A DNA stretch of 64,000 nucleotides from Dehalococcoidia bacterium (GTDB lineage Bacteria; Chloroflexota; Dehalococcoidia; GIF9; AB-539-J10), in NCBI GenBank assembly GCA_030605765.1, contig JAUWHP010000033.1:7812-71811 (forward strand). Reading direction: 5' to 3'. A model generated the notes under the pieces. It was not told the origin of the DNA, made no database searches, and saw only the letters and a program-made list of their open reading frames with translations. The position numbers and the translations under genes were made by a program. Of the stretch, positions 14,750-27,101 are shown piece by piece; the first letter of the stretch is position 1; each line of letters opens with the position of its first letter.

Positions 14750-15961
14750 ATGGGCGAGACCTCTGGAGTAGGGGTTATTATAGTTGCTGCTGGCAAGGCT
14801 GAGCGGATGGGTGCTACGGACAAAATCTTTGCTCCCTTGGCGGGCAAACCTGTATTAGCTTGGCCGGTGGATACATGCCAGCGATGTAGCTTAGTTAAGC
14901 AGATAATCATTACGCTGAATAATGGCAATCTAAAGCCAGGCCAGAAGTTAAAAGAAGAAAGAGCTTGGACCAAGGCTACTATGTGTCTTGGTGGTGCACA
15001 GCGACAAGACTCGGTAAAGGAAGGGCTACTCAAGCTGAAGGACTGTGATCGAGTCATAATTCACGATGGAGCTCGCCCTTTCCTGACTTCGGATTTAATT
15101 CAAAATGGCTTGGAGGCAGCCAAAGAAACTGGTGCTGCTGTAGCTGCCGTGCCGGTTAAGGATACCATCAAATTTACCGATGATACGGGGTTAATTACGG
15201 AAACGCTTCAGCGTAATAGGTTGTGGGCAGTACAAACTCCACAAATATTCAGCTTTGATGTAATAAACCAGGCTTACCAGGAACTCACAACCGAGATTAC
15301 TGATGACGCCGCTGCTGTGGAGCGCTCAGGACACAAAGTGAAGATTTATCCTGGCGATTACAATAATATAAAGATAACCACACCTGAGGATTTGGCGCTA
15401 GCGGAGATTATTGCACGGCTTAATCCTGAACAAAGCAAGTGCCCTCCTTGTTACCCTGAGCGGCACGAAGGAGCTAAGGAAGAACTGAGAGTTGGCATTG
15501 GCTATGATAGCCATCCTTTGGTTCCGGGGCGCAAGCTGGTTTTGGGTGGTGTGGATATTCCTTATGATAAGGGCTTATTAGGGCGGAGTGATGCTGATGT
15601 GGCCACTCACGCTATTATAGATGCTTTGTGTGGTGCCGCTGATCTTGGTGATATTGGCACTCGGTTCCCTCCGGAAGATCCGAGGCACGAAGGCATCTCC
15701 AGTTTGGATTTGCTGAATGAAATTCGTAAGCTACTTGAAGGAAAAAACTTTAAGGTAACTAATATCGATACTACTATCATTGCCCAACGTCCCAAACTTT
15801 CGCCTTTTGTTCCTGAGATGAGAAAACAAATCAGCCAAGCTTTAGGTATTAAAACGACACAGGTGACGATTAAAGCTACTACCACCGATGGTTTAGGTTT
15901 TATCGGTAGAGAAGAGGGAATAGCTGCTCAATCTGTAGCTTTAGTTACCACCATTTTATAA
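14750..15961 (+). CDS. ispDF: bifunctional 2-C-methyl-D-erythritol 4-phosphate cytidylyltransferase / 2-C-methyl-D-erythritol 2,4-cyclodiphosphate synthase
   Basis: N-terminal IspD (VIIVAAGKAERMG) fused to C-terminal IspF (RVGIGYDSHPL...GRSDADV). Confidence 0.92.
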   Translation: MGETSGVGVIIVAAGKAERMGATDKIFAPLAGKPVLAWPVDTCQRCSLVKQIIITLNNGNLKPGQKLKEERAWTKATMCLGGAQRQDSVKEGLLKLKDCDRVIIHDGARPFLTSDLIQNGLEAAKETGAAVAAVPVKDTIKFTDDTGLITETLQRNRLWAVQTPQIFSFDVINQAYQELTTEITDDAAAVERSGHKVKIYPGDYNNIKITTPEDLALAEIIARLNPEQSKCPPCYPERHEGAKEELRVGIGYDSHPLVPGRKLVLGGVDIPYDKGLLGRSDADVATHAIIDALCGAADLGDIGTRFPPEDPRHEGISSLDLLNEIRKLLEGKNFKVTNIDTTIIAQRPKLSPFVPEMRKQISQALGIKTTQVTIKATTTDGLGFIGREEGIAAQSVALVTTIL

Positions 15962-16212
15962 CTTGGTTTACCTTCTTCCCAGTAGACTATAAATTTGACT
16001 GCTCTCTGTTGTGTCAAATACTCTTCACTTTCCCGGCGCAGCTTTTTGAAATCCGTTGATTCTAAAAAGGCCTTGAGAAGCTCGATATTCATTGCTGCTT
16101 CTTTGTCTTCTTGCGCACTTTCCATATACTTGTTTACCAGGCTCCAGAATTCTTCTCTGGCTACAGTTTCTATGCAATGGGAAAGGCTGGGCAAAAGGTC
16201 TATACAACCCAT
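15928..16212 (-). CDS. hypothetical small acidic protein (convergent with ispDF, overlapping its 3' end)
   Basis: 94-aa ORF with no recognisable domain and helical/acidic composition. The real start may be an internal Met. Confidence 0.3.
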   Translation of the reverse strand: MGCIDLLPSLSHCIETVAREEFWSLVNKYMESAQEDKEAAMNIELLKAFLESTDFKKLRRESEEYLTQQRAVKFIVYWEEGKPSYKMVVTKATD

Positions 16213-16251
16213 ATTCTAATTTGTATCACTAACTAACAATATTTTCAAAAT

Positions 16252-16280
16252 TTGACAGCATTAATGATGGGTGTTAGAAT
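16252..16280 (+). promoter_or_regulatory. near-consensus sigma70-type promoter (TTGACA, 17-nt spacer, TAGAAT) for the DUF134 operon
   Basis: TTGACAgcattaatgatgggtgtTAGAAT read directly from the sequence, about 50 nt upstream of the DUF134 gene start. Confidence 0.55.
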
Positions 16281-16329
16281 CATTATTGACATATGTTCAT
16301 AATGACTAATGGAGATGAGGTGATTTCTG

Positions 16330-16794
16330 TTGGCTAGGCCGGTGAAATTGCGGTGTGTTGCCCAATTACCTAGAGCGGGTTTTTTTAGGCCGGTAGGGCC
16401 TCCAGCAAGTGCTTTACAAAAGGTTTGCCTTTCTGTGGAAGAAATCGAATCTATTCGGCTTAAGGATTTTGAGGGGTTGGAGCAGGAGGAATGTGCTCAA
16501 GAGATGCGCATCTCCAGGCCAACTTTCCACCGTATATTAGGGTCAGCCAGAAAGAAATTGGCCGATGCCTTGGTTAATGGCAAAGCGATTCAAGTTGAAG
16601 GTGGTAACTTTGGATTAGCTCAAAGTTATTTTAGGTGTAACAATGATGGACATGAATGGAATGTACCTTTTGAGGCTCTGGCACGTGGATTTCCATTATC
16701 TTGCCCTATATGCTCCAGTGCGAACATCCAGCCTTTGCCTTCATTTGGCTTTGGGAAAAGATATGGCAGGCGATTCCGTGGAGGAAGAGTTTAA
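16330..16794 (+). CDS. DUF134 (UPF0251) family putative DNA-binding protein with C-terminal Cys-containing extension
   Basis: N-terminus MARPVKLRCVAQLPRAGFFRPVGPP...VEEIESIRLKDFEGLEQEECAQEMRISRPTFHRILGSARKKLADALVNGKAI matches the DUF134 signature (sigma-70 region-4-like HTH). The C-terminal extension has C-x4-H ... CPIC. Confidence 0.8.
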   Translation: MARPVKLRCVAQLPRAGFFRPVGPPASALQKVCLSVEEIESIRLKDFEGLEQEECAQEMRISRPTFHRILGSARKKLADALVNGKAIQVEGGNFGLAQSYFRCNNDGHEWNVPFEALARGFPLSCPICSSANIQPLPSFGFGKRYGRRFRGGRV

Positions 16795-16837
16795 CAATGG
16801 AATACAAGAAGAATATAAGAAAAGGAGGTGAGTAAGA

Positions 16838-17077
16838 ATGCCATTTGGAGATGGAACAGGGCCAGTAGGGTTGGGTCCAATGACGGGCAGAGCAGCGGGT
16901 TTTTGTGCCGGTTTCGGCAGGCCTGGGTTTGCCAATCCCATTCCTGGAAGTTGGTTTGGCTTTGGCAGTGGGGCACCTTATGGGCATTACTATGCTGGGC
17001 GTTATAGCCGTTTCTATCCTTGGCGAGGTCGGGGCAGACGGTGGAGATGGTGGGCGCCCTATCGGTATTCCTGGTAA
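16838..17077 (+). CDS. Gly-rich small protein, DUF5320-like N-terminal module (MPFGDGTGPVGLGPMTGRAAGFC...); C-terminal part apparently out of frame
   Basis: Strong RBS aaggaggtg, conserved N-terminal motif shared with 17298 and 18548. The C-terminus (RGRGRRWRWWAPYRYSW) looks like frame-shifted sequence. Confidence 0.6.
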   Translation: MPFGDGTGPVGLGPMTGRAAGFCAGFGRPGFANPIPGSWFGFGSGAPYGHYYAGRYSRFYPWRGRGRRWRWWAPYRYSW

Positions 17078-17103
17078 GGAAGAAATTTAGGGGGGGTGAT
17101 ATA

Positions 17104-17280
17104 ATGTGGCCTTGGTTTGGACGGAATCCTTGGGGATGGCCTGCATATAGAATGCCTTATGGTTACCCGTGGGGAGCCATACCTAAAGAGGAAGAGATAA
17201 GAATGCTTAAAGAGCAAGAGAGATGGCTGACGAACGAACTGAATGATGTAAAGAAGAGACTTGAAGAAATTCGCAAATAA
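17104..17280 (+). CDS. small Trp/Pro-rich protein with C-terminal coiled-coil (DUF5320-like C-terminal module)
   Basis: 58 aa: MWPWFGRNPWGWPAYRMPYGYPWGAIPKEEEIRMLKEQERWLTNELNDVKKRLEEIRK. A G7 tract plus ATG sits at 17090-17106. The coiled-coil motif recurs in the 17298 and 17705 products. Confidence 0.5.
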   Translation: MWPWFGRNPWGWPAYRMPYGYPWGAIPKEEEIRMLKEQERWLTNELNDVKKRLEEIRK

Positions 17281-17297
17281 AATTAAGGAGGTGAATT

Positions 17298-17690
17298 ATG
17301 CCAGGATTTGATGGAACAGGACCAGGTGGAATGGGTCCGATGACAGGAGGTGGAAGGGGTTTTTGTAGCCCCTGGGGCTCAGGCGGTTGGCACGGTTTAG
17401 GGAGAGGAGGCGGTTTTGGATTTAGGGGAAGCTCTCCTCCGTGGCCTTTTGTTGGTATAGGTAGGGGGGGATTGCCCAGAGGTGCGTATCCGGGAGCTGC
17501 TGGGATGCCTGTATCACCAGCCTACCCCTCTTATAGTAGCCCTTCGACTATGCCTTATGGGAGTAGCCCTTACGCTGCACAAATGACTCGGGAGCAGGAA
17601 ATGGATTTTCTGAAGAGCCAAACTGAAGCAATGAAGGGGCAATTGGAGCAAATTGGTGCTAGAATGAAAGAACTGGAAACAGAAGAATAA
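17298..17690 (+). CDS. DUF5320-like Gly-rich protein (full length: N-terminal GDGTGP motif plus C-terminal coiled-coil)
   Basis: RBS aaggaggtg. Sequence MPGFDGTGPGGMGPMTGGGRGFC ... REQEMDFLKSQTEAMKGQLEQIGARMKELE. Confidence 0.75.
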   Translation: MPGFDGTGPGGMGPMTGGGRGFCSPWGSGGWHGLGRGGGFGFRGSSPPWPFVGIGRGGLPRGAYPGAAGMPVSPAYPSYSSPSTMPYGSSPYAAQMTREQEMDFLKSQTEAMKGQLEQIGARMKELETEE

Positions 17691-17704
17691 GAAGGAGGAG
17701 AATC

Positions 17705-18283
17705 ATGAAGATCGGAGTGTCAGCAATAGCTCCTAGTTTAGATGCTGAAGTGGACCCCCGGTTTGGAAGATGCCAATACTTTGTCATTGTTGATCCGCAA
17801 ACCATGGAATTTGAAGCTTTACAGAATTCTAGTGCCATGGCTGCAGGTGGAGCTGGCATTAGCACGGCTCAGATGATTGCCAATAAAGGGGTACAAGTAA
17901 TACTTACCGGCAATTGTGGGCCTAATGCTTATCAGACATTATCCGCTGCTGGACTTCAGGTGATCACTGGCGCTGCCGGCAGGATAAGGGATGTTGTGCA
18001 GGCTTATAAGGATGGTAAATTTCAACCAACTGCTCAGGCTAATGTAGGTAGCCATTATGGCATGGGCAGTGGCTCTGGTATGGGTATGGGCCGCGGCATG
18101 GGCATGGGCATGGGTAGAGGAATGGGGCGTGGTATGGGGATGGCATCTATGACAGAGCCAGTACCTCAAGCCGTGGGCCCAGAACAAGAGACAGAGATGC
18201 TTAAAAGCCAGGCACAGGTATTAGGGCAGCAATTAAATGAAATACAACGGCGTATTGAGGAGTTAAGTAAAAAGAAGGAGTAA
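17705..18283 (+). CDS. NifX/NafY-like dinitrogenase FeMo-cofactor-binding family protein (Nitro_FeMo-Co, PF02579-like) with Met/Gly-repeat and coiled-coil C-terminal tail
   Basis: MKIGVSA...VDPRFGRCQYFVIVD...GAGISTAQMIANKGVQVILTGNCGPNAYQTL is a Nitro_FeMo-Co fold signature. The tail has GMGSGSGMGMGRGMGMGMGRGMGRGMGM followed by ETEMLKSQAQVLGQQLNEIQRRIEEL. Confidence 0.8.
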   Translation: MKIGVSAIAPSLDAEVDPRFGRCQYFVIVDPQTMEFEALQNSSAMAAGGAGISTAQMIANKGVQVILTGNCGPNAYQTLSAAGLQVITGAAGRIRDVVQAYKDGKFQPTAQANVGSHYGMGSGSGMGMGRGMGMGMGRGMGRGMGMASMTEPVPQAVGPEQETEMLKSQAQVLGQQLNEIQRRIEELSKKKE

Positions 18284-18292
18284 GGAGGTGCT

Positions 18293-18505
18293 ATGCCCAT
18301 CTATGAATATCAATGCACTCAGTGCGGACAAAAATTCGAGGTTCGCCAAACGATTGGTGAGGGAGGTTCTAAGCTAAGCTGCCCTAAATGCCATGCCTCA
18401 AATCCTGAAAGGCTCTTTTCTTCGTTCTTCAGCCCAGCCTCAATCACAACTGAGTCTTCAGGGACAAGCTGTCCTACTTGCAACTCTGGAATTTGTGGGC
18501 TGTAG
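18293..18505 (+). CDS. FmdB-family zinc-ribbon protein
   Basis: MPIYEYQCTQCGQKFEV...LSCPKCHAS is the hallmark FmdB CxxC...CxxC. An extra C-terminal CPTCNSGIC is present. Confidence 0.8.
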   Translation: MPIYEYQCTQCGQKFEVRQTIGEGGSKLSCPKCHASNPERLFSSFFSPASITTESSGTSCPTCNSGICGL

Positions 18506-18547
18506 CCTAGAAGCTAAAGAGAGCCGATTTCTATTGGAGGTGTTATT

Positions 18548-18772
18548 ATGTCCAGAGGAGATGGCACAGGCCCTTTGGGTCAGGGACGGGGGACAGGAAA
18601 AGGGATGGGCCGTGGTATGGGAAGTGGGAGAATGGGAGGGAACCGCCCTGGAGCGGGTCCTAGCGGAAACTGCGTTTGCCCCAGTTGTGGGACAAAAGTC
18701 TCCCACCAGGTGGGCGTTCCCTGTTACAACCTGAGTTGTCCTAAGTGCGGGACGAAAATGATTAGAGAATAG
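18548..18772 (+). CDS. Gly-rich (GDGTGP motif) small protein fused to a C-terminal zinc ribbon
   Basis: MSRGDGTGPLGQGRGTGKGMGRGMG... then CVCPSCGTK...CPKCGTK. Confidence 0.65.
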   Translation: MSRGDGTGPLGQGRGTGKGMGRGMGSGRMGGNRPGAGPSGNCVCPSCGTKVSHQVGVPCYNLSCPKCGTKMIRE

Positions 18773-18773
18773 A

Positions 18774-19634
18774 ATGATAATCTCCGTTGCCAGCGGTAAA
18801 GGAGGCACAGGGAAAACGCTGGTAGCTGTAAATCTGGCTCTTACTTTGAGTGATGTGTACAGAGTACAGCTATTAGATTGTGATGTAGAGGAGCCAGATG
18901 CGCATATTTTTCTTCATTTAGCTACTAATCGAAGCGAAGCGGTAGTGATTCCTGTGCCTAGAATAGATGAGACGAAGTGTACCTATTGTGGCAGGTGTGC
19001 TGAAGTCTGTGTCTATAATGCTATCGCTGTGCTTAAGGGAAAGGTGCTCGTTTTCCCTGAGTTATGCCATGGCTGTGGAGCGTGTTCTTACTTATGCCCC
19101 GAGTCAGCTATTTCCGAGGAGGGGAGAGAAATAGGAGTGGTGGAAACAGGGGATTCAGGAAATATGGAGTTTATTCAGGGACGACTTGCCATTGGAGAGC
19201 CAATGGCTCCACCTATAATCAGGGAGGTAAAGAAGCACATTGATCGTGTAAGAGAGGTCATTATCGATGTTCCTCCAGGAACTTCTTGCCCCGTAGTAGA
19301 GGCAGTTAAGAGTAGTGACTTCTGCCTCTTGGTGACTGAGCCTACTCCTTTTGGGTTGAATGACCTTTCGCTAGCAGTAGAGCTGGTAAGAAAATTGCAA
19401 ATCCCATGCGGGGTGATAATTAACCGAAGTGGCGTAGGAGATGAAAAAGTTGAGCAATACTGTCAGGAGCAGGGGATACCCATCTTGCTGAAGATTCCTT
19501 TAGATAGAAATATTGCCACACTCTATTCGAAAGGAATCCCCTTGATAGCAGGTATGCCTGAGTGGCGTGGGGTCTTTGTTACTCTTTTTCAAAATATAAA
19601 GCAGATAGACTCAGCTAGTCGGGTGGTGAAATGA
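18774..19634 (+). CDS. MinD/ParA-superfamily P-loop ATPase with inserted 2x[4Fe-4S] ferredoxin domain
   Basis: Deviant Walker A SGKGGTGKT, ferredoxin insert CTYCGRCAEVC...CHGCGACSYLCP, then the continued ATPase fold (DVPPGTSCP). Confidence 0.85.
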   Translation: MIISVASGKGGTGKTLVAVNLALTLSDVYRVQLLDCDVEEPDAHIFLHLATNRSEAVVIPVPRIDETKCTYCGRCAEVCVYNAIAVLKGKVLVFPELCHGCGACSYLCPESAISEEGREIGVVETGDSGNMEFIQGRLAIGEPMAPPIIREVKKHIDRVREVIIDVPPGTSCPVVEAVKSSDFCLLVTEPTPFGLNDLSLAVELVRKLQIPCGVIINRSGVGDEKVEQYCQEQGIPILLKIPLDRNIATLYSKGIPLIAGMPEWRGVFVTLFQNIKQIDSASRVVK

Positions 19635-19759
19635 CGGCTTGGCAGCAAATTGCCATAGATGGTGAAACACACGTTAAGAGAATAACGGATCAGTATGAGG
19701 AGTTTGGTTTTCAAGTTCGCCTTGAAGAAGTTAAGCCTGCGGAAGCAGGAGGTTGGTAA
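19631..19759 (+). CDS. small ORF (42 aa) translationally coupled between the two MinD-ferredoxin ATPase genes
   Basis: ATGA start/stop overlap with the upstream gene. Sequence MTAWQQIAIDGETHVKRITDQYEEFGFQVRLEEVKPAEAGGW. It is too short to appear in the ORF track and there is no homology evidence. Confidence 0.3.
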   Translation: MTAWQQIAIDGETHVKRITDQYEEFGFQVRLEEVKPAEAGGW

Positions 19760-19765
19760 ATACAA

Positions 19766-20626
19766 ATGAAAGAGGTTGTGGTTCTGAGCGGCAAGGGAGG
19801 AACCGGGAAGACAAGCTTGGTAGCTTCGTTTGCCGCTTTAGCTCAAAGTAAAGTATTGGTTGACTGCGATGTTGATGCCGCAGACCTCTACCTTCTTCTC
19901 AAACCACAAGTTACGGAGGAAAACGAATTTTGGAGTGGCCAGATTGCCTTCATTGATAAAAAAGTATGCACTGAGTGTGGACTTTGCCAGGAAATGTGCC
20001 GTTTTGGAGCTATAAAGGATTACTTTGTTGATAAGATTTCTTGTGAGGGCTGCGGGCTATGTTCTCAAATCTGCCCCGTTAATGCTATTATTATGCAATC
20101 TTGTATGGCTGGACACTGGTTTATTTCTGAGACAAGCTATGGCACTCTCATTCATGCTAAATTGGGAATTACTGAGGAAAGCTCCGGCAAGTTAGTAACC
20201 TTGGTTCGGAATAGCGCCAGGCTTGTAGCGGAGGAGGGAAAATTCGATTATATCATCAGCGATGGTCCTCCAGGTATTGGCTGCCCGGTTATCGCTTCTC
20301 TATCCGGAGCTAATTTGGCACTCCTGGTAATCGAGCCTACATTATCAGGAATCCATGACCTCGAGCGTGTAATTGGTGTCTGCCGCCACTTTGGCATTCC
20401 CATTCTGGTTTGCATAAACAAATATGACATAAACGAAGAAAACTCTTATCGCATTGAAGATTACTGTCATAACAACGATATAGAAGTGGCAGTAAAAATT
20501 CCTTTTGACAATGTAGTGACTGAGGCAATTGTTGAGGGCTTACCTGTAGTGGAGTACTCCGACGGCAAAGTAACTCAGCAGGTGAGGGAGCTATGGAAAA
20601 TTGTTTCAGTAAAGTTAAATAATTAG
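19766..20626 (+). CDS. MinD/ParA-superfamily P-loop ATPase with inserted 2x[4Fe-4S] ferredoxin domain (paralog)
   Basis: SGKGGTGKT, ferredoxin insert CTECGLCQEMC...CEGCGLCSQICP, DGPPGIGCP. Confidence 0.85.
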   Translation: MKEVVVLSGKGGTGKTSLVASFAALAQSKVLVDCDVDAADLYLLLKPQVTEENEFWSGQIAFIDKKVCTECGLCQEMCRFGAIKDYFVDKISCEGCGLCSQICPVNAIIMQSCMAGHWFISETSYGTLIHAKLGITEESSGKLVTLVRNSARLVAEEGKFDYIISDGPPGIGCPVIASLSGANLALLVIEPTLSGIHDLERVIGVCRHFGIPILVCINKYDINEENSYRIEDYCHNNDIEVAVKIPFDNVVTEAIVEGLPVVEYSDGKVTQQVRELWKIVSVKLNN

Positions 20627-20636
20627 GAGGGAAGAG

Positions 20637-20879
20637 ATGCCAATTTATGAATATAGGTGTTTGAATTGTGGGAGGATATCAGAAATCCTCCTTCGCAATC
20701 TGGACAACGAAAACATTGAGTGCCCAATATGCGGCAGCGAGAATCTGGAAAAGCTTTTGTCTGCTTCCTATGCTATAAGGATGAATGATTCTATGCCTGC
20801 TGGAACTTGCTGCGGCAGAACAGAGCGCTGCGAGACACCTCCTTGCTCTGTGAATGGCACCTGTAGGAGGAATGACTGA
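20637..20879 (+). CDS. FmdB-family zinc-ribbon protein (paralog)
   Basis: MPIYEYRCLNCGRISEI...IECPICGSE, with a Cys-rich C-terminal tail. Confidence 0.8.
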   Translation: MPIYEYRCLNCGRISEILLRNLDNENIECPICGSENLEKLLSASYAIRMNDSMPAGTCCGRTERCETPPCSVNGTCRRND

Positions 20880-20881
20880 AA

Positions 20882-21220
20882 ATGAGATACGCGGTACCTG
20901 TAGTAGATGGCAAAGTGGCTGAGCACTTTGGCCATTGTAGCCATTTTGCCTTGTTTGATATCGATGAAACGAGCAAGGTGATTGTGAAGAAGGAGGTAAT
21001 AGCTTCGCCAGGACATCAACCTGGATTTCTTCCAGAGTGGCTGGCTGCGGAAGGAGTTTCCGTTGTTATAGCTAATGGCATGGGATCCAGGGCACAAAGC
21101 CTTTTTAGAGAGAGCCGTATTGAAGTTGTTACTGGCACGCTAGGAGATGAGCCACAGGAAGCCGTTCTAGCTTACCTGAGAGGTACATTGGCTACTGGCG
21201 ATAATTTGTGTGACCATTAA
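20882..21220 (+). CDS. NifX/NafY-like (Nitro_FeMo-Co family) protein (paralog, no tail)
   Basis: MRYAVPVVDGKVAEHFGHCSHFALFDIDE...VIANGMGSRAQSLF. Confidence 0.8.
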   Translation: MRYAVPVVDGKVAEHFGHCSHFALFDIDETSKVIVKKEVIASPGHQPGFLPEWLAAEGVSVVIANGMGSRAQSLFRESRIEVVTGTLGDEPQEAVLAYLRGTLATGDNLCDH

Positions 21221-21246
21221 GTACATGAAGATAGGAGGCAGATGTT

Positions 21247-22248
21247 ATGGCAACTGAAGATTCGGTGATTGAAGCGTTAAATAAAGTGCTTGTCCCTGGA
21301 GCAATGCGTAGCTTGGTGCAGATGAATTTGTTGCGAAACGTTGAAGTTAAAGATGGAGAGGCGAAAATCACTTTGGCTTCGACTGCTATCCCTGCCCAAT
21401 CTCAGGATTGGTTAAGGGCTAAAGTGACCACAGCAGTTCGCGAACTGCCTGAAGTGAAAGGAGTTGTTGTTGACCTTGTAGAAGCCAAACCTAAGGAACT
21501 TAACCAAATTCAGAATATAATAGCTGTGATGAGTGGAAAAGGTGGAGTGGGCAAATCTTTGGTAGCTGGCTTACTGGCTGTTGCTTTTGCTCGAGATGGT
21601 AAGGAGGTTGGTATACTTGATGCTGACATTACCGGCCCTAGCATCCCTAAAATGTTTGGTTTAAATATTCACCCTAGTGGCAGCGAGACAGGTATCTTGC
21701 CGATATTATCGAGGTCTGGAATTGAAGTTATGTCTATGAACCTTCTATTGCCTAGCGAAGATGAAGCAGTTATTTGGAGAGGCCCTCTTATGTCAAAAGC
21801 CATTACGCAGTTCTGGGAGGAGGTGCTTTGGGGCAACCTTGATTATCTCGTGGTTGATTTGCCACCTGGTACTGCGGATGCCGCATTGACAGTATTGCAG
21901 ACTTTACCGCTTGCCGGTGTAATCGACGTTTTTACTCCTCAGGAGTTGACGGGAATGATAGTGAAAAAGGCAGTGAAAATGGCAAGGAAATTAAACGTTC
22001 GTGTTCTGGGGGTAATAGAGAACATGAGCTATCTGTTGTTACCCGAAACGGGCAAAAAACTGGAGGTTTTTGGCCGGAGCAAGGGAGAGGAAATGGCTAA
22101 GGCCTGTGAAGCACCACTGTTAGGGCAATTGCCTATTGACCCTCAATTGGCTAAATTGTGTGATGAAGGAAATATTGAGAGATACAATTCGGATGCCTTG
22201 TCACAAATCTTTGCCAATGTAGGTGCTGCTCTAAATGAGAGAAAGTGA
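21247..22248 (+). CDS. Mrp/NBP35/ApbC-family P-loop ATPase with N-terminal DUF59/MIP18-like domain; lacks the canonical CxxC cluster-bridging motif
   Basis: DUF59-like N-terminus (LLRNVEVKDGEAKITL), Walker A SGKGGVGKS, and the conserved ENMS segment present as VIENMSYLLLPETGKK with no cysteines. Confidence 0.8.
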   Translation: MATEDSVIEALNKVLVPGAMRSLVQMNLLRNVEVKDGEAKITLASTAIPAQSQDWLRAKVTTAVRELPEVKGVVVDLVEAKPKELNQIQNIIAVMSGKGGVGKSLVAGLLAVAFARDGKEVGILDADITGPSIPKMFGLNIHPSGSETGILPILSRSGIEVMSMNLLLPSEDEAVIWRGPLMSKAITQFWEEVLWGNLDYLVVDLPPGTADAALTVLQTLPLAGVIDVFTPQELTGMIVKKAVKMARKLNVRVLGVIENMSYLLLPETGKKLEVFGRSKGEEMAKACEAPLLGQLPIDPQLAKLCDEGNIERYNSDALSQIFANVGAALNERK

Positions 22249-22266
22249 AATCCTAAGTCAGGAGGA

Positions 22267-22728
22267 ATGACAGTGGAAGTTGGAAATTCCTTTAAAGAGT
22301 TGGAGGAATCTGTTATGCAGGATATGCTAAAAACCTATTCTGAGGAAGCAATCGACCATTTTCTTAACCCGAGAAATCTGGGGCAGATTGAATCTCCAGA
22401 TGGGTTTGGAAGGGTAACCGGCCCTTGTGGGGATACCATGGAGATATATCTCAGGGTAAATGGAGGCAGGATTACAAATGCTACCTTCCTGACTGGTGGC
22501 TGTGGCCCCAGTATCGCCTCCGGCAGCATGGCCACTGAGCTAATTAAAGGAAAGAGCATTGTTGAGGCTCAGAACATAAGCCAAGATAATATTCTAAATG
22601 CCTTAGGAGGACTTCCTGAGGAGAGCCAGCACTGTGCCCTTCTGGCGGCAAATGCACTTAAAGAAACAGTTAGAGACTATTTAGCCTTCAAAAACGAACC
22701 TTGGAAAAGGCTTTATAAAGTCCACTAG
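22267..22728 (+). CDS. IscU/NifU-N-like Fe-S cluster scaffold protein
   Basis: Three conserved Cys in their expected contexts: GPCGDTM, GGCGPS, QHCALLA. An alternative start lies at the ATG near 22309. Confidence 0.8.
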   Translation: MTVEVGNSFKELEESVMQDMLKTYSEEAIDHFLNPRNLGQIESPDGFGRVTGPCGDTMEIYLRVNGGRITNATFLTGGCGPSIASGSMATELIKGKSIVEAQNISQDNILNALGGLPEESQHCALLAANALKETVRDYLAFKNEPWKRLYKVH

Positions 22729-22871
22729 AACCTGAAGCGGATAGAATGAATTTGCCACCTGTGGTATAGCCCTGCTTTGAGAGTGTGATGGTAGTTTGAA
22801 CCTTATGCCTGAAGGTAAGCCGCTGGATTTGTAGTAGATTTTGCGGCGAAGGCAAAACTTCTAGCCACCTT

Positions 22872-23141
22872 ATGTTAAAAGTAAATGTGAATCTTTGTGT
22901 GGGTTGTGCTTTATGCGCCCAGGTATGCCCTCAAGGGGCTATCAGCCTCATTGGGGGCAAAGCAGAGGTAGATACCAGTAAATGTGACTCTTGCTATTGG
23001 TGTCTTGAAGCGTGCCCTCGAGGCGCAATTTCTGAGTTGATTATAGTCTCCCCGGAGGAACTAAGAGTTACTGTTTCTACGCTAAAGCGACAAACAGATG
23101 ATATAATAAAGAGGATTAACAGGCTGGCTACCAAGGTTTAG
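22872..23141 (+). CDS. 2[4Fe-4S] ferredoxin
   Basis: CVGCALCAQVCP and CDSCYWCLEACP clusters. Confidence 0.75.
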   Translation: MLKVNVNLCVGCALCAQVCPQGAISLIGGKAEVDTSKCDSCYWCLEACPRGAISELIIVSPEELRVTVSTLKRQTDDIIKRINRLATKV

Positions 23142-23151
23142 GGTTATCGTC

Positions 23152-23607
23152 GTGAAAGAACAGCGGATTTTAGAATTGAAGCCCATAGGGGTAATCCATT
23201 CGCCTTACCCTGATAGGGGAGAAGCACCACGTCAGGGCTGCGGGCGAGATGAAATCTGCCGGGTAGAAGTGTTCAAAGAATTTGAAGAGGGCTTGAAAGA
23301 CATAGATGGTTTTTCCCACGTTAGCTTGATATATTGGTTTCATAAATCTGGAGGATATCGTCTGCTCATTACAACCCCGTGGGATACAAAGCTGCATGGG
23401 CTTTTTACTACGAGGTCGCCAAACAGACCCTGCCCATTGGGGTTATGCTTGGTGGAGTTGGTTGCCCGGGAAGGGAATATTCTCAGTGTAAAGGGGTTGG
23501 ATGCTATAGACGGCACTCCGCTTTTGGATATCAAGCCATACATTCCCTCTATAGATGAGAAAACTAACGGCCAAGTTGGGTGGCTTAAAGACAGATTCAA
23601 AGGTTAG
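23152..23607 (+). CDS. tsaA: tRNA (N6-threonylcarbamoyladenosine(37)-N6)-methyltransferase TrmO / TsaA (YaeB family)
   Basis: 151-aa ORF with GTG start. It contains the YaeB-like beta-barrel core (IGVIHSPY...RSPNRPCPLG...LDGTPLLDIKPY). Confidence 0.75.
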   Translation: MKEQRILELKPIGVIHSPYPDRGEAPRQGCGRDEICRVEVFKEFEEGLKDIDGFSHVSLIYWFHKSGGYRLLITTPWDTKLHGLFTTRSPNRPCPLGLCLVELVAREGNILSVKGLDAIDGTPLLDIKPYIPSIDEKTNGQVGWLKDRFKG

Positions 23608-23658
23608 GGGAGAGGGCGAAAGGGAGGATAATGAATGCCAATAACCTATGTTGGCATC

Positions 23659-24489
23659 TTAGTAAATTACTTTTACTTCATCTCCTATTTCCATGCCAAG
23701 AAAGTCGCAGGCACTTCCAGCTCTTAGCGATATTTCCAGATAACCACTGCTGCCCAGGATAGCTACTAACCCCTGTTCCTCTTCATAATAACGCGATATG
23801 CCTTGAATATGTTGCCCTGCTGCTTCGATAATAATGTTTCCCTGTGGCAAATCAGTGCTCTTTATATCAGTGATCAGGTTGCCAAAATTGTCAACGTATA
23901 GGATATGGCCTACTAGGTTACCTTGTGGGTCAAAGGATGGTTTTGGAGCAGGAAAAACATAAAGAGAGGTAATCCTTTCTCCAAACTCATAAAGTGATAT
24001 ACCTAAAGAGAGGCCAGCGGCAACCGGGGCAAAGATATCTCTACCATGAAAGGTAGGGCTGACTGGGTGCCGCCAAAACCGTGGTTCAGTAATGGCCACA
24101 GCTTCAATCCCCTTTTTAAAAGTTATCCTTTCAGGGCTTTTAGAATATTGATTCGAGGGCCTTTCATTAGAGGATAACTCATTAATTACATAACTGAGAA
24201 TGCCATTATCAGGAGCAAGGAAGAGGGATGAAGGCGTTTTCAGGATTATCCCTTGTCGCTCACTTCCTACGCCAGGGTCAACGATGGCTACATGGATGCT
24301 TTGCTGGGGAAAGTAGCGATAAGCGATATTGAGGATGAAAGCAGCTTGTGCAATATTCTGTGGCTTAACGGAGTGAGTAATATCGATGATAGTAGCTCCT
24401 GGGTTAGTACTCAGAATGACACCCTTCATAACGGCAACATAGGCATCACTGAAACCGAAGTCGGTAGTCAGCGTTATTATCGGATTCAT
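23659..24489 (-). CDS. SAM hydroxide adenosyltransferase (DUF62; fluorinase/chlorinase-like family)
   Basis: N-terminus MNPIITLTTDFGFSDAYVAVMKGVIL is typical of the family. Length is 276 aa. Confidence 0.8.
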   Translation of the reverse strand: MNPIITLTTDFGFSDAYVAVMKGVILSTNPGATIIDITHSVKPQNIAQAAFILNIAYRYFPQQSIHVAIVDPGVGSERQGIILKTPSSLFLAPDNGILSYVINELSSNERPSNQYSKSPERITFKKGIEAVAITEPRFWRHPVSPTFHGRDIFAPVAAGLSLGISLYEFGERITSLYVFPAPKPSFDPQGNLVGHILYVDNFGNLITDIKSTDLPQGNIIIEAAGQHIQGISRYYEEEQGLVAILGSSGYLEISLRAGSACDFLGMEIGDEVKVIY

Positions 24490-24495
24490 TCTTGG

Positions 24496-24717
24496 TTAGG
24501 TAGCTGAGGCAACTATTAATATTGCCAGAGCAACGAAGATGACAGCTAGGACAAGAGTGAGTTTAAACAAAGTTCTTTCTACCCCTCGCCGCGTTCGATA
24601 TGTTGACTCGGCTTGTCCGAAGATGCCTCCTAGGCCTCCTCCATGGAGTTGAAATAGCACAGTGGCAATTAAAGCTACAGCCACTAATATTTGAGCGATG
24701 GCAAAATATTTAGGCAA
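24496..24717 (-). CDS. secG: preprotein translocase subunit SecG
   Basis: 73 aa with two TM helices and a central LHGGGLGGIFG motif. Confidence 0.75.
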   Translation of the reverse strand: MPKYFAIAQILVAVALIATVLFQLHGGGLGGIFGQAESTYRTRRGVERTLFKLTLVLAVIFVALAILIVASAT

Positions 24718-26155: not shown

Positions 26156-26247
26156 GAATTTGAAAATAGTATAGCAAGCATGCCAACCTGACACAAGGAA
26201 GCGTGAGCTTGACCTAAAGTTCAAGGCGTTGCTACAATTGAGCTTGC

Positions 26248-26320
26248 GGGGATATAGCTCAGTTGGGAGAGCGCTGCGTTCGCATCGCAGAGGTTGGGGG
26301 TTCGAATCCCCCTATCTCCA
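26248..26320 (+). tRNA. tRNA-Ala (anticodon CGC), no encoded CCA
   Basis: Acceptor ggggata/tatctcc with G3:U70, anticodon loop ttCGCat, T-loop ttcgaat. Confidence 0.85.
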
Positions 26321-26324
26321 CTGC

Positions 26325-26398
26325 GCCCCTGTAGCTCAGACGGATAGAGCAGCGGTTTCCTAAACCGCGTGTCGGGCGTTCGAATCGCCCCAGGGGTA
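26325..26398 (+). tRNA. tRNA-Arg (anticodon CCT), no encoded CCA
   Basis: Anticodon stem gcggt/accgc, loop ttCCTaa, T-arm gggcg-ttcgaat-cgccc. The acceptor begins with a G1:U72 wobble. Confidence 0.75.
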
Positions 26399-26418
26399 CT
26401 TGCTGTTGTGCAAGTTTT

Positions 26419-26495
26419 AGGGGTGTAGCTCAGTTGGCTAGAGCAGCGGTCTCCAAAACCGCAGGTCGCGGGTTCGAATCCTGCCGCCCCTGCCA
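26419..26495 (+). tRNA. tRNA-Trp (anticodon CCA), CCA encoded
   Basis: Anticodon loop ctCCAaa, T-loop ttcgaat, 3' GCCA. Confidence 0.85.
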
Positions 26496-26496
26496 T

Positions 26497-26583
26497 GCCG
26501 GGGTGGTGGAACAGGTAGACACGCCATCTTGAGGGGGTGGTGGGCGTGAGCCCGTGGGAGTTCAAGTCTCCCCCTCGGCACCA
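26497..26583 (+). tRNA. tRNA-Leu (anticodon GAG), long variable arm, CCA encoded
   Basis: Anticodon loop ttGAGgg, extended variable arm tgggcgtgagcccgtg, T-loop ttcaagt. Confidence 0.8.
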
Positions 26584-26627
26584 ATTTAGTTTGCTTGAAT
26601 TGAGGGAAAGCGGTAAAATTTAGTTAA

Positions 26628-26702
26628 GCGGAAGTAGTTCAGCGGTAGAATGCTTCCTTGCCAAGGAAGAGGTCGCGAGTTCGAATCTCGTCTTCCGCTC
26701 CA
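26628..26702 (+). tRNA. tRNA-Gly (anticodon GCC), CCA encoded
   Basis: Acceptor gcggaag/cttccgc, anticodon loop ttGCCaa. Confidence 0.85.
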
Positions 26703-26722
26703 TAAAATTTGAGCCCGGTTGT

Positions 26723-26795
26723 GGCGGCGTAGCCAAGAGGTTAAGGCAGGGGTCTGCAAAACCCTTATGCAGCGGTTCGAATCCGCTCGCCGCCT
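26723..26795 (+). tRNA. tRNA-Cys (anticodon GCA), no encoded CCA
   Basis: Acceptor ggcggcg/cgccgcc, anticodon loop ctGCAaa. Confidence 0.85.
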
Positions 26796-26856
26796 TTTTA
26801 GATTAAAGATAGTGCAAAACTTGAGCAAAATCTTATTATAGGCGGGTGTTTTAAGA

Positions 26857-26939
26857 GCCGAGGTGGCGGAATGGTAGACGCGGCGGACTTAAAATCCGTT
26901 TCCCGTGAGGGAGTGTGGGTTCGAGTCCCTCCCTCGGCA
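26857..26939 (+). tRNA. tRNA-Leu (anticodon TAA), long variable arm, no encoded CCA
   Basis: Acceptor gccgagg/cctcggc, anticodon loop ctTAAaa, long variable arm. Confidence 0.8.
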
Positions 26940-27101
26940 CGAATTCTTTAGCTTCCAATTGGTTTCACACATTTCCATCTTTGATATGGTGAATGGAGCT
27001 GGTCATTGTGCTGGTTTTTATTTGGCCGTAGTAGTGTAAGTATAACAAGGGAAGCATACTGGGGAAGCGGAGGTGATTACGAAACAGCGACTTGTGTTTT
27101 G

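Follow-up and report, generated by a model that had tools for sequence, protein, structure and literature searches.

Identity of the locus

Which system is encoded by a tightly packed run of genes for metal-cluster carriers, scaffolds and ATPases that has no enzyme beside it? Such a run is found in a 64-kb stretch of DNA from a Dehalococcoidia bacterium (contig JAUWHP010000033.1; the whole stretch is called the window, and all positions are counted from its first nucleotide). A first-pass annotation, made from the letters alone, had considered it an undescribed system. This view was given up, as the locus appears to be a variant form of the complex named ORP (orange protein), judged by the match of one product to the structure 2WFB, the presence of both halves of MrpORP and the pair of MinD-type ATPases. 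We assign a probability of roughly 70% to the reading that the locus represents the anaerobe-specific ORP system as it occurs in Dehalococcoidia, with a split MrpORP, i.e. of a known but functionally unsolved system. The variant is noteworthy for its DUF134 regulator with a candidate operator that spans phyla, for its DUF5320 members and for the split MrpORP, whose Mrp half is devoid of CxxC.

Fifteen open reading frames (ORFs) were found on the + strand between 16330 and 23141, or sixteen if the TrmO-like gene at 23152-23607 is counted. They exist as first annotated and are as tightly packed, with intergenic gaps between -4 and 43 nt and the sole exception of 143 nt before the ferredoxin gene. 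Three start/stop overlaps had been listed, of which the ATGA at 19631-19634 is the only true one; at the junctions 18772/18774 and 20879/20882 the genes stand 1 and 2 nt apart. All family names given in the first-pass annotation were confirmed by Pfam profile searches. Its analogies to NifX/NafY with FeMo-co and to CooC hold as a likeness at the level of the families and not beyond.

The gene at 17705-18283 (+) encodes an ORP-type (Orp8-like) NifX-like domain, followed by a Gly/Met/Arg tail and a DUF5320 coiled coil. The domain matched Nitro_FeMo-Co (PF02579) with 87.6 bits and the tail DUF5320 with 44.0 bits. Its best match in the PDB was 2WFB, the ORP of D. gigas (E 3.4e-21, residues 2-110), followed by MTH1175, and more than 6000 homologues have the same architecture. 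Two MinD-type ATPases with an inserted 2x[4Fe-4S] ferredoxin domain, both Orp3/Orp4-like, are encoded at 18774-19634 (+; CbiA, ParA and two Fer4 matches) and 19766-20626 (+; CbiA/ParA and two Fer4). Both contain the deviant Walker A motif SGKGGTGKT and two CxxCxxCxxxC motifs, the eight Cys of which are invariant in 47 diverse sequences. The MinD-Fer4 family is large: at E<=1e-30 it has 915 clusters of 50% identity, and tandem fusions of about 600 amino acids (aa) are frequent among them. These Orp3-Orp4-like fusions support a heterodimeric ATPase unit.

The NCBIfam equivalog model for MrpORP (NF041136; 365 positions, cut-off 450 bits) was matched in two parts. Its positions 265-365 matched the protein encoded at 20882-21220 (+) with 117.3 bits (E 9e-34). 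This Di-Nase-type NifX-like protein (Nitro_FeMo-Co 74.6 bits) is the separate-gene equivalent of the C-terminal domain of MrpORP/Orp9 and carries HFGHC and a C-terminal CDH, motifs reported for MrpORP's Di-Nase domain (PMC6345978). Positions 1-239 matched the Mrp/NBP35-type ATPase at 21247-22248 (+), which has an N-terminal FeS_assembly_P domain and reached 298.7 bits for ParA/NUBPL, with 309.6 bits compared to 223 bits for ApbC. Thus, the two domains of Orp9/MrpORP are present as separate genes in reversed order. In a control, fused proteins from Desulfobacterales (L030, L031 and L040) passed the cut-off of the model with 501-518 bits, and their loci have the same neighbours, namely an ORP with a DUF5320 tail, a GlyZn protein and the MinD pair.

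An acidic 42-aa ORF (19631-19759, +), which shares the ATGA overlap, lies between the ATPase genes. Family scans of its product gave no match. Its N-terminal 39 aa are kept in L003, L004, L005 and L008 (27-74 bits), where the ORF has 66-84 aa; given the longer ORF in the 98%-identical L005, the copy in the window may have been shortened by an indel. As a side observation on the ATPases, many of the closest MinD-Fer4 representatives (P0121-P0162 and others) have about 600 aa and two full copies of the module.

The ORP complex of D. vulgaris consists of Orp3, Orp4, Orp5, Orp8 and Orp9 (PMC6345978, PMC8359166, PMC3897727), and MrpORP hands Fe-S clusters to Orp3-Orp4-Orp8 in vitro (PMC6345978, PMC8359166). 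According to the published biochemistry of the homologues, Orp3, Orp4 and Orp8 are purified together and receive [4Fe-4S] clusters from the Mrp domain, the cluster of ORP is held non-covalently, and a [3Fe-4S] cluster is bound by the Di-Nase domain. Expression of the orp genes is confined to low redox potential and controlled by the Fe-S-containing sigma-54 activator OrpR (PMC6345978, PMC8359166). OrpR is reported to be restricted to delta-Proteobacteria (PMC8359166).

The cluster of Desulfovibrio and the one described here have in common the adjacent pair of MinD-type ATPases with 2x[4Fe-4S] inserts, a single-domain ORP-type NifX-like protein and Mrp and Di-Nase modules corresponding to the MrpORP halves. 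Both are devoid of an enzyme partner and occur in anaerobes only. By gene order, the small Cys-rich GlyZn protein directly before the ATPase pair and a Gly/Arg-rich protein before ORP would correspond to Orp5, upstream of the ATPases, and Orp7, upstream of orp8 (PMC8359166). In contrast to Desulfovibrio, MrpORP is split and reversed here, its Mrp half has no CxxC and an extra N-terminal FeS_assembly_P domain, the ORP domain bears a DUF5320 tail, and four to five DUF5320 paralogues are present. The locus would be a single operon under sigma-70, with DUF134 as regulator and a palindrome as operator candidate, whereas in D. vulgaris there are two divergent operons of the sigma-54 type, for which OrpR and IHF are the activators. 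Genes for an IscU-like protein, a ferredoxin and a TrmO-like protein are added here.

The ORP of D. gigas was rebuilt from the PDB alignment and used as a search query. A 75%-identical relative was found in locus L165, in the order DUF134, Gly/Arg-rich protein, ORP, MinD-Fer4, MinD-Fer4, NifX-like protein and Zn_ribbon_8. The DUF5320 position is taken there (L165, 7414-7752) by a 112-aa Gly/Arg/Gln-rich protein of the (GQGR)n type with one Cys and no MPxxDGTGP motif. Thus, the form under DUF134 occurs right beside the lineage whose orange protein is biochemically defined.

The NifX, NafY and C-terminal NifB carriers of nitrogenase share with the locus the Nitro_FeMo-Co domain (PF02579) and the non-covalent binding of complex metal-sulfur clusters. 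They differ in that nifHDKENB are missing here and that ORP, MTH1175 and MrpORP are better matches for the proteins than any Nif model is; none of the window's proteins matched TIGR01290 (NifB).

Co-conservation of the gene set

An alignment of 47 MinD-Fer4 members served as anchor for the retrieval of 80 genomic loci from more than 15 phyla including archaea. The bacterial loci came from Chloroflexota, Acidobacteriota, Zixibacteria, Ignavibacteria, Omnitrophota, Bacillota, Planctomycetota, Desulfobacterota and Atribacteria, and the archaeal ones from Bathy-, Thor- and Heimdallarchaeota, Thermoplasmata, Methanosarcina, Methanothrix and others. The nearest genome, measured by the first ATPase, was the Dehalococcoidia metagenome-assembled genome RS_17_36 with 98% identity. 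Proteins of the window were searched against six-frame ORFs of the 80 loci within 5 kb of the anchor, and neighbours were assigned by single-pass phmmer with domain resolution. Iterated searches with hidden Markov models (HMMs) on whole ORFs were discarded because of drift, the NifU, TrmO and DUF5320 profiles each giving more than 200 hits.

The module set was strongly co-conserved across anaerobes, which bears out the treatment of the locus as one system in the first-pass annotation. A second MinD-Fer4 gene was present in 84% of the loci, any NifX-like gene in 92% and two or more of them in 76%. DUF5320 was found in 56%, or 68% with the GlyZn type added, followed by Mrp (48%), Zn_ribbon_8 (40%), NifU_N (31%, often directly upstream of the MinD pair) and DUF134 (26%). 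In 35 of the 80 loci, bona fide MrpORP loci included, the gene directly upstream of the MinD pair encoded a GlyZn homologue. The reverse test was anchored on DUF5320 in metagenome contigs, with those loci as denominators that had enough flanking sequence. Of 56 such loci, 50 had a NifX-like gene no farther than 700 bp downstream; a MinD-Fer4 gene was present up to 2.5 kb downstream in 22 of 27, and a DUF134 gene up to 3 kb upstream in 22 of 26. As the best 80 hits lean toward relatives of the query, these values are no unbiased frequencies for the whole family.

The core consists of DUF134, several DUF5320 proteins, the ORP-type NifX, a Zn ribbon, GlyZn, MinD, a small ORF, MinD, a Zn ribbon and the Di-Nase-type NifX. 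Homology or synteny establishes the ORP-type composition, the co-conservation, the lack of an enzyme partner and the conservation of the operator candidate. The ORP core is a module across bacterial and archaeal phyla and no speciality of Desulfovibrio. NifX-like domains outside nitrogenase occur in 65% of anaerobes and 7.6% of aerobes and, as genomic markers of anaerobes, rank with the strongest (PMC13386939).

Several other families recurred beside the 80 loci: radical SAM (S-adenosylmethionine) proteins in 15, the metallo-beta-lactamase fold in 14, a third NifX-like type in 13, sigma-54 activators in 12 (mainly Desulfobacterota), ARMT1/DUF89 in 11, FUR in 10, DUF364+DUF4213 ('heavy-metal chelation') and CGGC in 8 each, DUF1847 in 5 and FeoB and DtxR-like proteins in 4 each.

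DUF134 regulator and candidate operator

The first gene of the run (16330-16794, +) encodes a helix-turn-helix protein of the DUF134/UPF0251 family (PF02001), with 87.6 bits against a Pfam gathering score of 27, which also applies to DUF5320 (PF17253). The NCBIfam model NF003257 gave 69.9 bits, below its cut-off of 115, and weak matches to sigma-70 region 4 were seen besides DUF134. A C-terminal extension carries a C-x4-H...CPxC ribbon followed by an Arg/Gly tail. The Cys and His of this ribbon are invariant in 44 homologues, and it is present in several other phyla. A search of solved structures found no relative, and a literature search for DUF134, UPF0251 and COG1342 found no functional study.

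A sigma-70-type promoter (TTGACA-17-TAGAAT, + strand) with a TG extended -10 precedes the gene at 16252-16280, the -35 box lying at 16252-16257 and the -10 box at 16275-16280. The near-consensus promoter that had been noticed before is real, with 11 of 12 matches; it is the sole site with such a score and the best promoter-like site in 15800-24600. Twelve promoter-like sites were found in this range compared to 12.6 expected by chance, so the argument is based on position and conservation and not on the count. L001 and L003 have TTGACA and a -10-like box at the equivalent relative position.

Immediately after the -10 box, an inverted repeat with arms of 13 nt (16280-16305, TCATTATTGACAT/ATGTTCATAATGA) contains the palindromic operator candidate TTATTGACATATGTTCATAA (DUF134 box, 16283-16302), which overlaps the expected transcript start. 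The consensus TTATGRRCATATGYYCATAA matched the 64-kb window once at <=3 mismatches, namely with one mismatch, at an expectation of 0.04. For its core ATGrrCATATGyyCAT, all 164 fetched loci (1.56 Mb) were counted, with 53 DUF134 genes that had enough upstream sequence. The core occurred 55 times at <=2 mismatches, and 37 of the 53 DUF134 genes had a copy in the 150 nt upstream; the background is 0.0017 per 150 nt, so that the enrichment is about 400-fold. Perfect copies were found in Dehalococcoidia and Zixibacteria (L017) and a copy with one mismatch in Ignavibacteria (L018), and the sequence flanking the palindrome differs between these loci. In Planctomycetota (L078 and L084) and in L008, the palindrome stands upstream of the first gene of the cluster (DUF89-like or DUF364-like), and DUF134 is located at the far end of the cluster or outside the fetched region. 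This speaks for the palindrome as a cluster operator and not a mere part of the DUF134 leader. In the Desulfovibrio-type locus L165, a palindrome GAACATACGTTC follows the -10 box; the sequence at the equivalent place reads TGTGAACATACGTTCAAA.

DUF134 is the sole DNA-binding candidate in the cluster, owing to its helix-turn-helix. It appears to take the place of sigma-54 and OrpR in this variant, which would be new compared to the ORP clusters of Desulfovibrio. Outside delta-Proteobacteria, the ORP core comes with this uncharacterised regulator and a clear candidate operator, which offers a direct experimental handle.

Two further repeats were seen nearby. A second inverted repeat (CATTAATGAT / ATCATTATTG, 16259-16288) flanks the -10 box, and L003 and L004 have a different palindrome, GTCAAAACTTGACAATTTTGAC, overlapping the -35 box. 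Both may be further regulatory sites.

DUF5320 proteins and zinc ribbons

Four Gly/Met-rich DUF5320-like proteins had been described at first. Three of them passed the Pfam gathering score, and the fourth (18548-18772) remained below it with 19.3 bits. The description as Gly/Met-rich proved wrong for most of the small proteins, which are rich in Gly, Arg and aromatic residues; only the tail of the ORP-type protein is Gly/Met-rich. DUF5320 sequence occurs in the window as an N-half gene, a C-half gene, a full-length gene, the tail of the ORP-type protein and the N-terminal motif of the GlyZn protein.

The N-half protein (16838-17077, +, 79 aa) matched Pfam positions 1-61 with 48.1 bits. The C-half protein (17104-17280, +, 58 aa) matched positions 43-99 with 28.5 bits and consists of a Trp/Pro/Gly-rich stretch and the coiled coil; its gene most likely starts at the ATG at 17104 and not at 17020, a Shine-Dalgarno-like GGGGGGTGA preceding 17104. 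The full-length protein (17298-17690, +, 130 aa) matched positions 1-99 with 49.8 bits and forms the first row of a 17-member alignment. The split into an N-half and a C-half is kept in Dehalococcoidia (L003, L006, L086, L094 and L095), and the two are fused in Planctomycetota (L069 and L078). Therefore, it is no frameshift artefact.

In the 17 diverse members, M1, P2, G6, T7, G8, P9, G11, G13, G17, G21 and C23 are invariant, and the consensus of the N-terminus reads MPxxDGTGPxGxGPMTGRxxGxC. It is followed by variable Gly/Arg/aromatic repeats, e.g. GRGRGWGGFGLGRGRGRG, a Pro/Tyr-rich linker and a C-terminal part with the conserved amphipathic helix EQELDFLKxQAxxLKxQLExIExRIxELE. The GlyZn protein (18548-18772, +) has the N-terminal DGTGP motif of the family, Gly/Arg repeats and a six-Cys ribbon (CxCPxCG...PC...CPxCG), and would be the positional equivalent of Orp5. 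Two FmdB-type zinc ribbons are encoded at 18293-18505 (+; 7 Cys, Zn_ribbon_8 61 bits, TIGR02605 66 bits) and 20637-20879 (+; 9 Cys, Zn_ribbon_8 51.8 bits, TIGR02605 56.7 bits).

The 2x[4Fe-4S] ferredoxin (22872-23141, +) has a C-terminal helix that is weakly similar to the DUF5320 coiled coil (E 5.6e-4 for the coiled-coil HMM in a search of 17 sequences). Since ferredoxin-DUF5320 fusions also exist (L069, L085, L155 and L156), a shared coiled coil that joins different heads is plausible. No functional study was found in a literature search for DUF5320 and COG1149. The DUF5320 proteins are regular, unstudied members of ORP clusters, which is a new assignment.

Likeness to IssA

The Gly-rich proteins raise the question whether the locus serves Fe-S storage as IssA of P. 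furiosus does. In such a case, the ORP-type NifX would nucleate a thioferrate-like polymer, the cationic Gly/Arg/aromatic segments of DUF5320, free-standing or fused, would wrap it, their coiled coils would build a particle or condensate and the ATPases would mobilise it together with the IscU-like protein. The tail of IssA, which binds anionic thioferrate, has 70 aa, a pI (isoelectric point) of 10.7, 15 Gly, 7 cationic and 14 aromatic residues, 11 Pro and 1 Cys (PMC5524996). The N-half DUF5320 protein has a pI of 10.9, 18 Gly, 10 Arg, 20 aromatic residues, 9 Pro and 1 Cys and is close to it, a likeness by published composition only, with which no membership is claimed. If this likeness is meaningful, the chemistry of DUF5320 would point to the binding of anionic iron sulfide, as in IssA. 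Furthermore, the middle regions of DUF5320 in other phyla consist of GRGRGWG-type repeats, L008 has a Trp/Gly/Arg-rich ORF, a single branch of the NifX-like family contains ORP, MTH1175 and IssA, and Fur, FeoB and DtxR-like genes recur beside ORP-like clusters. IssA and the locus share a NifX-like (IPR003731) domain that precedes a disordered, Gly-rich cationic segment, and both come from anaerobes rich in Fe-S proteins.

However, the ORP-type protein, which has the globular domain of IPR003731, does not qualify as IssA (pI >= 9, <5 Cys, >=20% Gly in the last 40 residues) or IssX (pI >= 8, <10 Cys, >=10% Gly in the last 40 residues), as its pI is 7.8 and it has 2 Cys, and Gly accounts for only 2 of its last 40 residues (5%). 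Its tail is rich in Gly, Met and Arg without aromatic residues, and a coiled coil follows the Gly-rich stretch. Free-standing DUF5320 proteins begin with the invariant MPxxDGTGP, unlike IssA, and Gly/Arg-rich low-complexity sequence arises easily. IssA of P. furiosus requires no ATPase pair, whereas two ATPases and several ribbon proteins are present here, and thioferrate is not known from any ORP-cluster protein. Storage of the IssA kind is considered rather unlikely; it extends the ORP assignment more than it contradicts it.

Separately, it was observed that the ORF in L008 (9139-9342, 67 aa, GRGWGRRGWGRGWGGRGYGRGWGWRG) stands just before a DUF5320 gene and is the sequence nearest to the described chemistry of the IssA tail.

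Proposed mechanism

With the locus read as an ORP system, it would be a self-contained machine that holds and passes on inorganic metal-sulfur cluster species and not the accessory set of a neighbouring enzyme. Transcription would start from the sigma-70 promoter at 16252-16280. A DUF134 dimer would repress it, its own gene included, by binding the palindrome at 16283-16302 and covering the transcript start. The status of metal, Fe-S or redox would probably be sensed by the C-x4-H...CPxC ribbon, which would replace the OrpR of Desulfovibrio in this role. The IscU-like scaffold and the Mrp-like ATPase may feed Fe-S clusters to both ATPases and to the small Cys-rich ribbon proteins. By means of ATP and its redox-active clusters, the ATPase pair could charge the NifX-fold carriers with a labile cluster or take it off them. 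The DUF5320 proteins may tether several carriers, and possibly the ferredoxin, through the shared C-terminal coiled coil, and their cationic Gly/Arg/aromatic segments would bind anionic cluster species.

A more far-reaching proposal, which we make tentatively and regard as rather unlikely in full, is that DUF5320 and the ORP-type NifX form a widespread Fe-S storage or buffer compartment of anaerobes akin to IssA particles, held together by the coiled coil around an anionic Fe-S polymer on the cationic segments and loaded and unloaded by the MinD-type pair, and that DUF134 as repressor switches the operon at ATGrrCATATGyyCAT by sensing cluster status with its Cys/His ribbon. If this were true, the function of the ORP complex would be dynamic storage and delivery of Fe-S. 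Both the purpose of the ORP complex and the storage and traffic of Fe-S in strict anaerobes are made more testable by the variant.

Several points weigh against the assignment to the ORP system or against parts of this mechanism. MrpORP is not found here as a single fused protein with CxxC: the Mrp protein scores below the cut-off of 450 bits and is unfused to the Di-Nase domain. It also has no CxxC pair, which binds the bridging [4Fe-4S] cluster in Mrp/NBP35 proteins. It reads ENMSYLLLPETGKK at the place where other Mrps of ORP clusters have CPxC, although the Walker A motif SGKGGVGKS is present. In all Dehalococcoidia orthologues with FeS_assembly_P and Mrp, CPxC is replaced by LPET or LPDS (LPET in the window), and it is kept in every other Mrp of an ORP cluster that was examined. 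Canonical binding of a bridging cluster is thus impossible. In L003 and L004, ABC-transporter, CoaE and DUF123 genes lie between the core and Mrp/NifU_N, which are therefore looser members than the core. The equations of Orp5 with the GlyZn protein and of Orp7 with the Gly/Arg-rich protein were made by gene order and not with the sequences of D. vulgaris. An AlphaFold2 model of the DUF134 protein from 44 close homologues was unreliable (pLDDT, the model's confidence score, 49) and was used for the order of secondary structure only, and it is from position only that DUF134 would be assigned to the palindrome. Many of the loci are from closely related Dehalococcoidia, so that part of the conservation counts reflects shared ancestry. 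Finally, the ORP complex has been studied biochemically for more than ten years and its physiological role is open even in Desulfovibrio (PMC6345978, PMC8359166, PMC3897727); the mechanism was therefore inferred from domain chemistry.

The IscU/NifU_N-type scaffold (22267-22728, +) contains 3 Cys and matched NifU_N with 121 bits and TIGR03419 with 135 bits, below the cut-off of 188. Compared to the carriers Mrp/NBP35/ApbC and IscU, the locus has in common the deviant Walker A P-loop with a high ParA/NUBPL score and the three-Cys NifU_N protein. It differs by the Mrp without CxxC and by the absence of a cysteine desulfurase gene adjoining the IscU-like gene.

Alternative explanations

In known systems, NifX/NafY, CooC/NifH-type ATPases, Mrp and IscU act in enzyme maturation. 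The locus could accordingly be dedicated to the maturation or repair of one distant metalloenzyme, for which a reductive dehalogenase, a hydrogenase or CODH/ACS (carbon monoxide dehydrogenase/acetyl-CoA synthase) would be candidates in Dehalococcoidia. The visible part of the genome comprises only 64 kb, and a radical SAM gene is near the cluster in 15 of the 80 loci, as would suit this explanation. However, the window contains no candidate enzyme. Pfam scans of its remainder gave only housekeeping genes, save an IorA-like 2-oxoacid:ferredoxin oxidoreductase 38 kb away, and so agreed with the first-pass annotation, which had seen no cognate enzyme. These genes encode ClpB/C, LeuRS, ProC, CoaD, RsmD, RadA, IspDF, GatB, MetRS, FtsH, Ndk, TsaB/E, ThiL, YidC, IleRS, HtrA, a Liv-type ABC transporter and acyl-CoA ligases. 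The cluster is embedded among them (radA and ispDF) in the window as well as in L001. Clustering of unassigned neighbours over the 80 loci, which stem from phyla of very different metabolisms, revealed no recurrent metalloenzyme family, and nifHDK, nifEN and nifB were found neither in the window nor among the recurrent neighbours. A dedicated maturase is thus unlikely.

Handling of Mo/W-Cu thiometallates has even less in its favour and is considered quite improbable. The ORP-type protein would carry [S2MoS2CuS2MoS2]3- and buffer or detoxify thiomolybdate and copper in sulfidic habitats. The nearest solved relative is indeed the Mo-Cu-binding orange protein of D. gigas (PMC6345978), and NifX-fold proteins bind Mo-containing clusters. 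On the other hand, neither mod or tup transporters nor molybdenum cofactor (Moco) genes nor a Moco riboswitch are present in the window, and the recurrent neighbours Fur, FeoB and DtxR-like proteins are related to iron and not to Mo or Cu. As the ORP cluster is held non-covalently, there are no ligand residues that could be checked in the sequence.

MinD-fold ATPases also include the metal-insertion ATPases NifH, CooC, HypB-type and Mrp. A role in spatial positioning or cell division, first proposed for ORP from the MinD likeness of Orp3 and Orp4, is the least likely explanation: both ATPases match MinD models and MinD structures, and MrpORP was seen at the cell pole of D. vulgaris with a proposed role in division (PMC6345978, PMC3897727), but this fold also covers metal insertion, no min, fts or par genes are nearby and the co-conserved partners are all metal-cluster proteins.

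Neighbouring genes

A TrmO_N (TsaA-like) protein is encoded at 23152-23607 (+; TrmO_N 120.8 bits; TIGR00104, the model for the TrmO/TsaA tRNA methyltransferase, 144.2 bits against a cut-off of 93.25). Its gene starts 10 nt past the ferredoxin gene and is probably co-transcribed with the cluster. Homologues (E 1e-30 to 1e-37) were found inside ORP-like clusters of other phyla in L043, L049, L064, L069, L070 and L077; in L077, TrmO_N is fused to a MinD-Fer4 ATPase (472 aa). Given this recurrence and the fusion, the real substrate may differ from that of TrmO. The downstream end of the operon is marked by a convergent gene (23659-24489, -) of the SAM hydroxide adenosyltransferase/(R)-SAM hydrolase family (SAM_HAT_N and SAM_HAT_C).

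Divergent from DUF134, the gene at 15928-16212 (-) encodes an acidic, AF_2379-like protein of 94 aa. Pfam and NCBIfam scans of its product gave no match; PF27306 is assigned in the precomputed annotation of its orthologues. These stand divergently upstream of DUF134 in L001, L003, L004, L006, L007 and several metagenome loci and inside the cluster on the + strand in L012, L016, L104, L118 and L128. The gene is a member of the conserved neighbourhood, and among the loci examined the protein occurs in Dehalococcoidia only.

A mobile island was considered and rejected, as the GC content is unremarkable and L001 keeps the locus beside radA-ispDF. An Rfam scan detected no riboswitch or other RNA in the locus, and tRNAs only elsewhere in the window. 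Seven tRNA genes (Ala, Arg, Trp, Leu, Gly, Cys and Leu) are located at 26248-26940 on the + strand, and the - strand ORFs 26221-26565 and 26586-26828 over this tRNA cluster are probably spurious.

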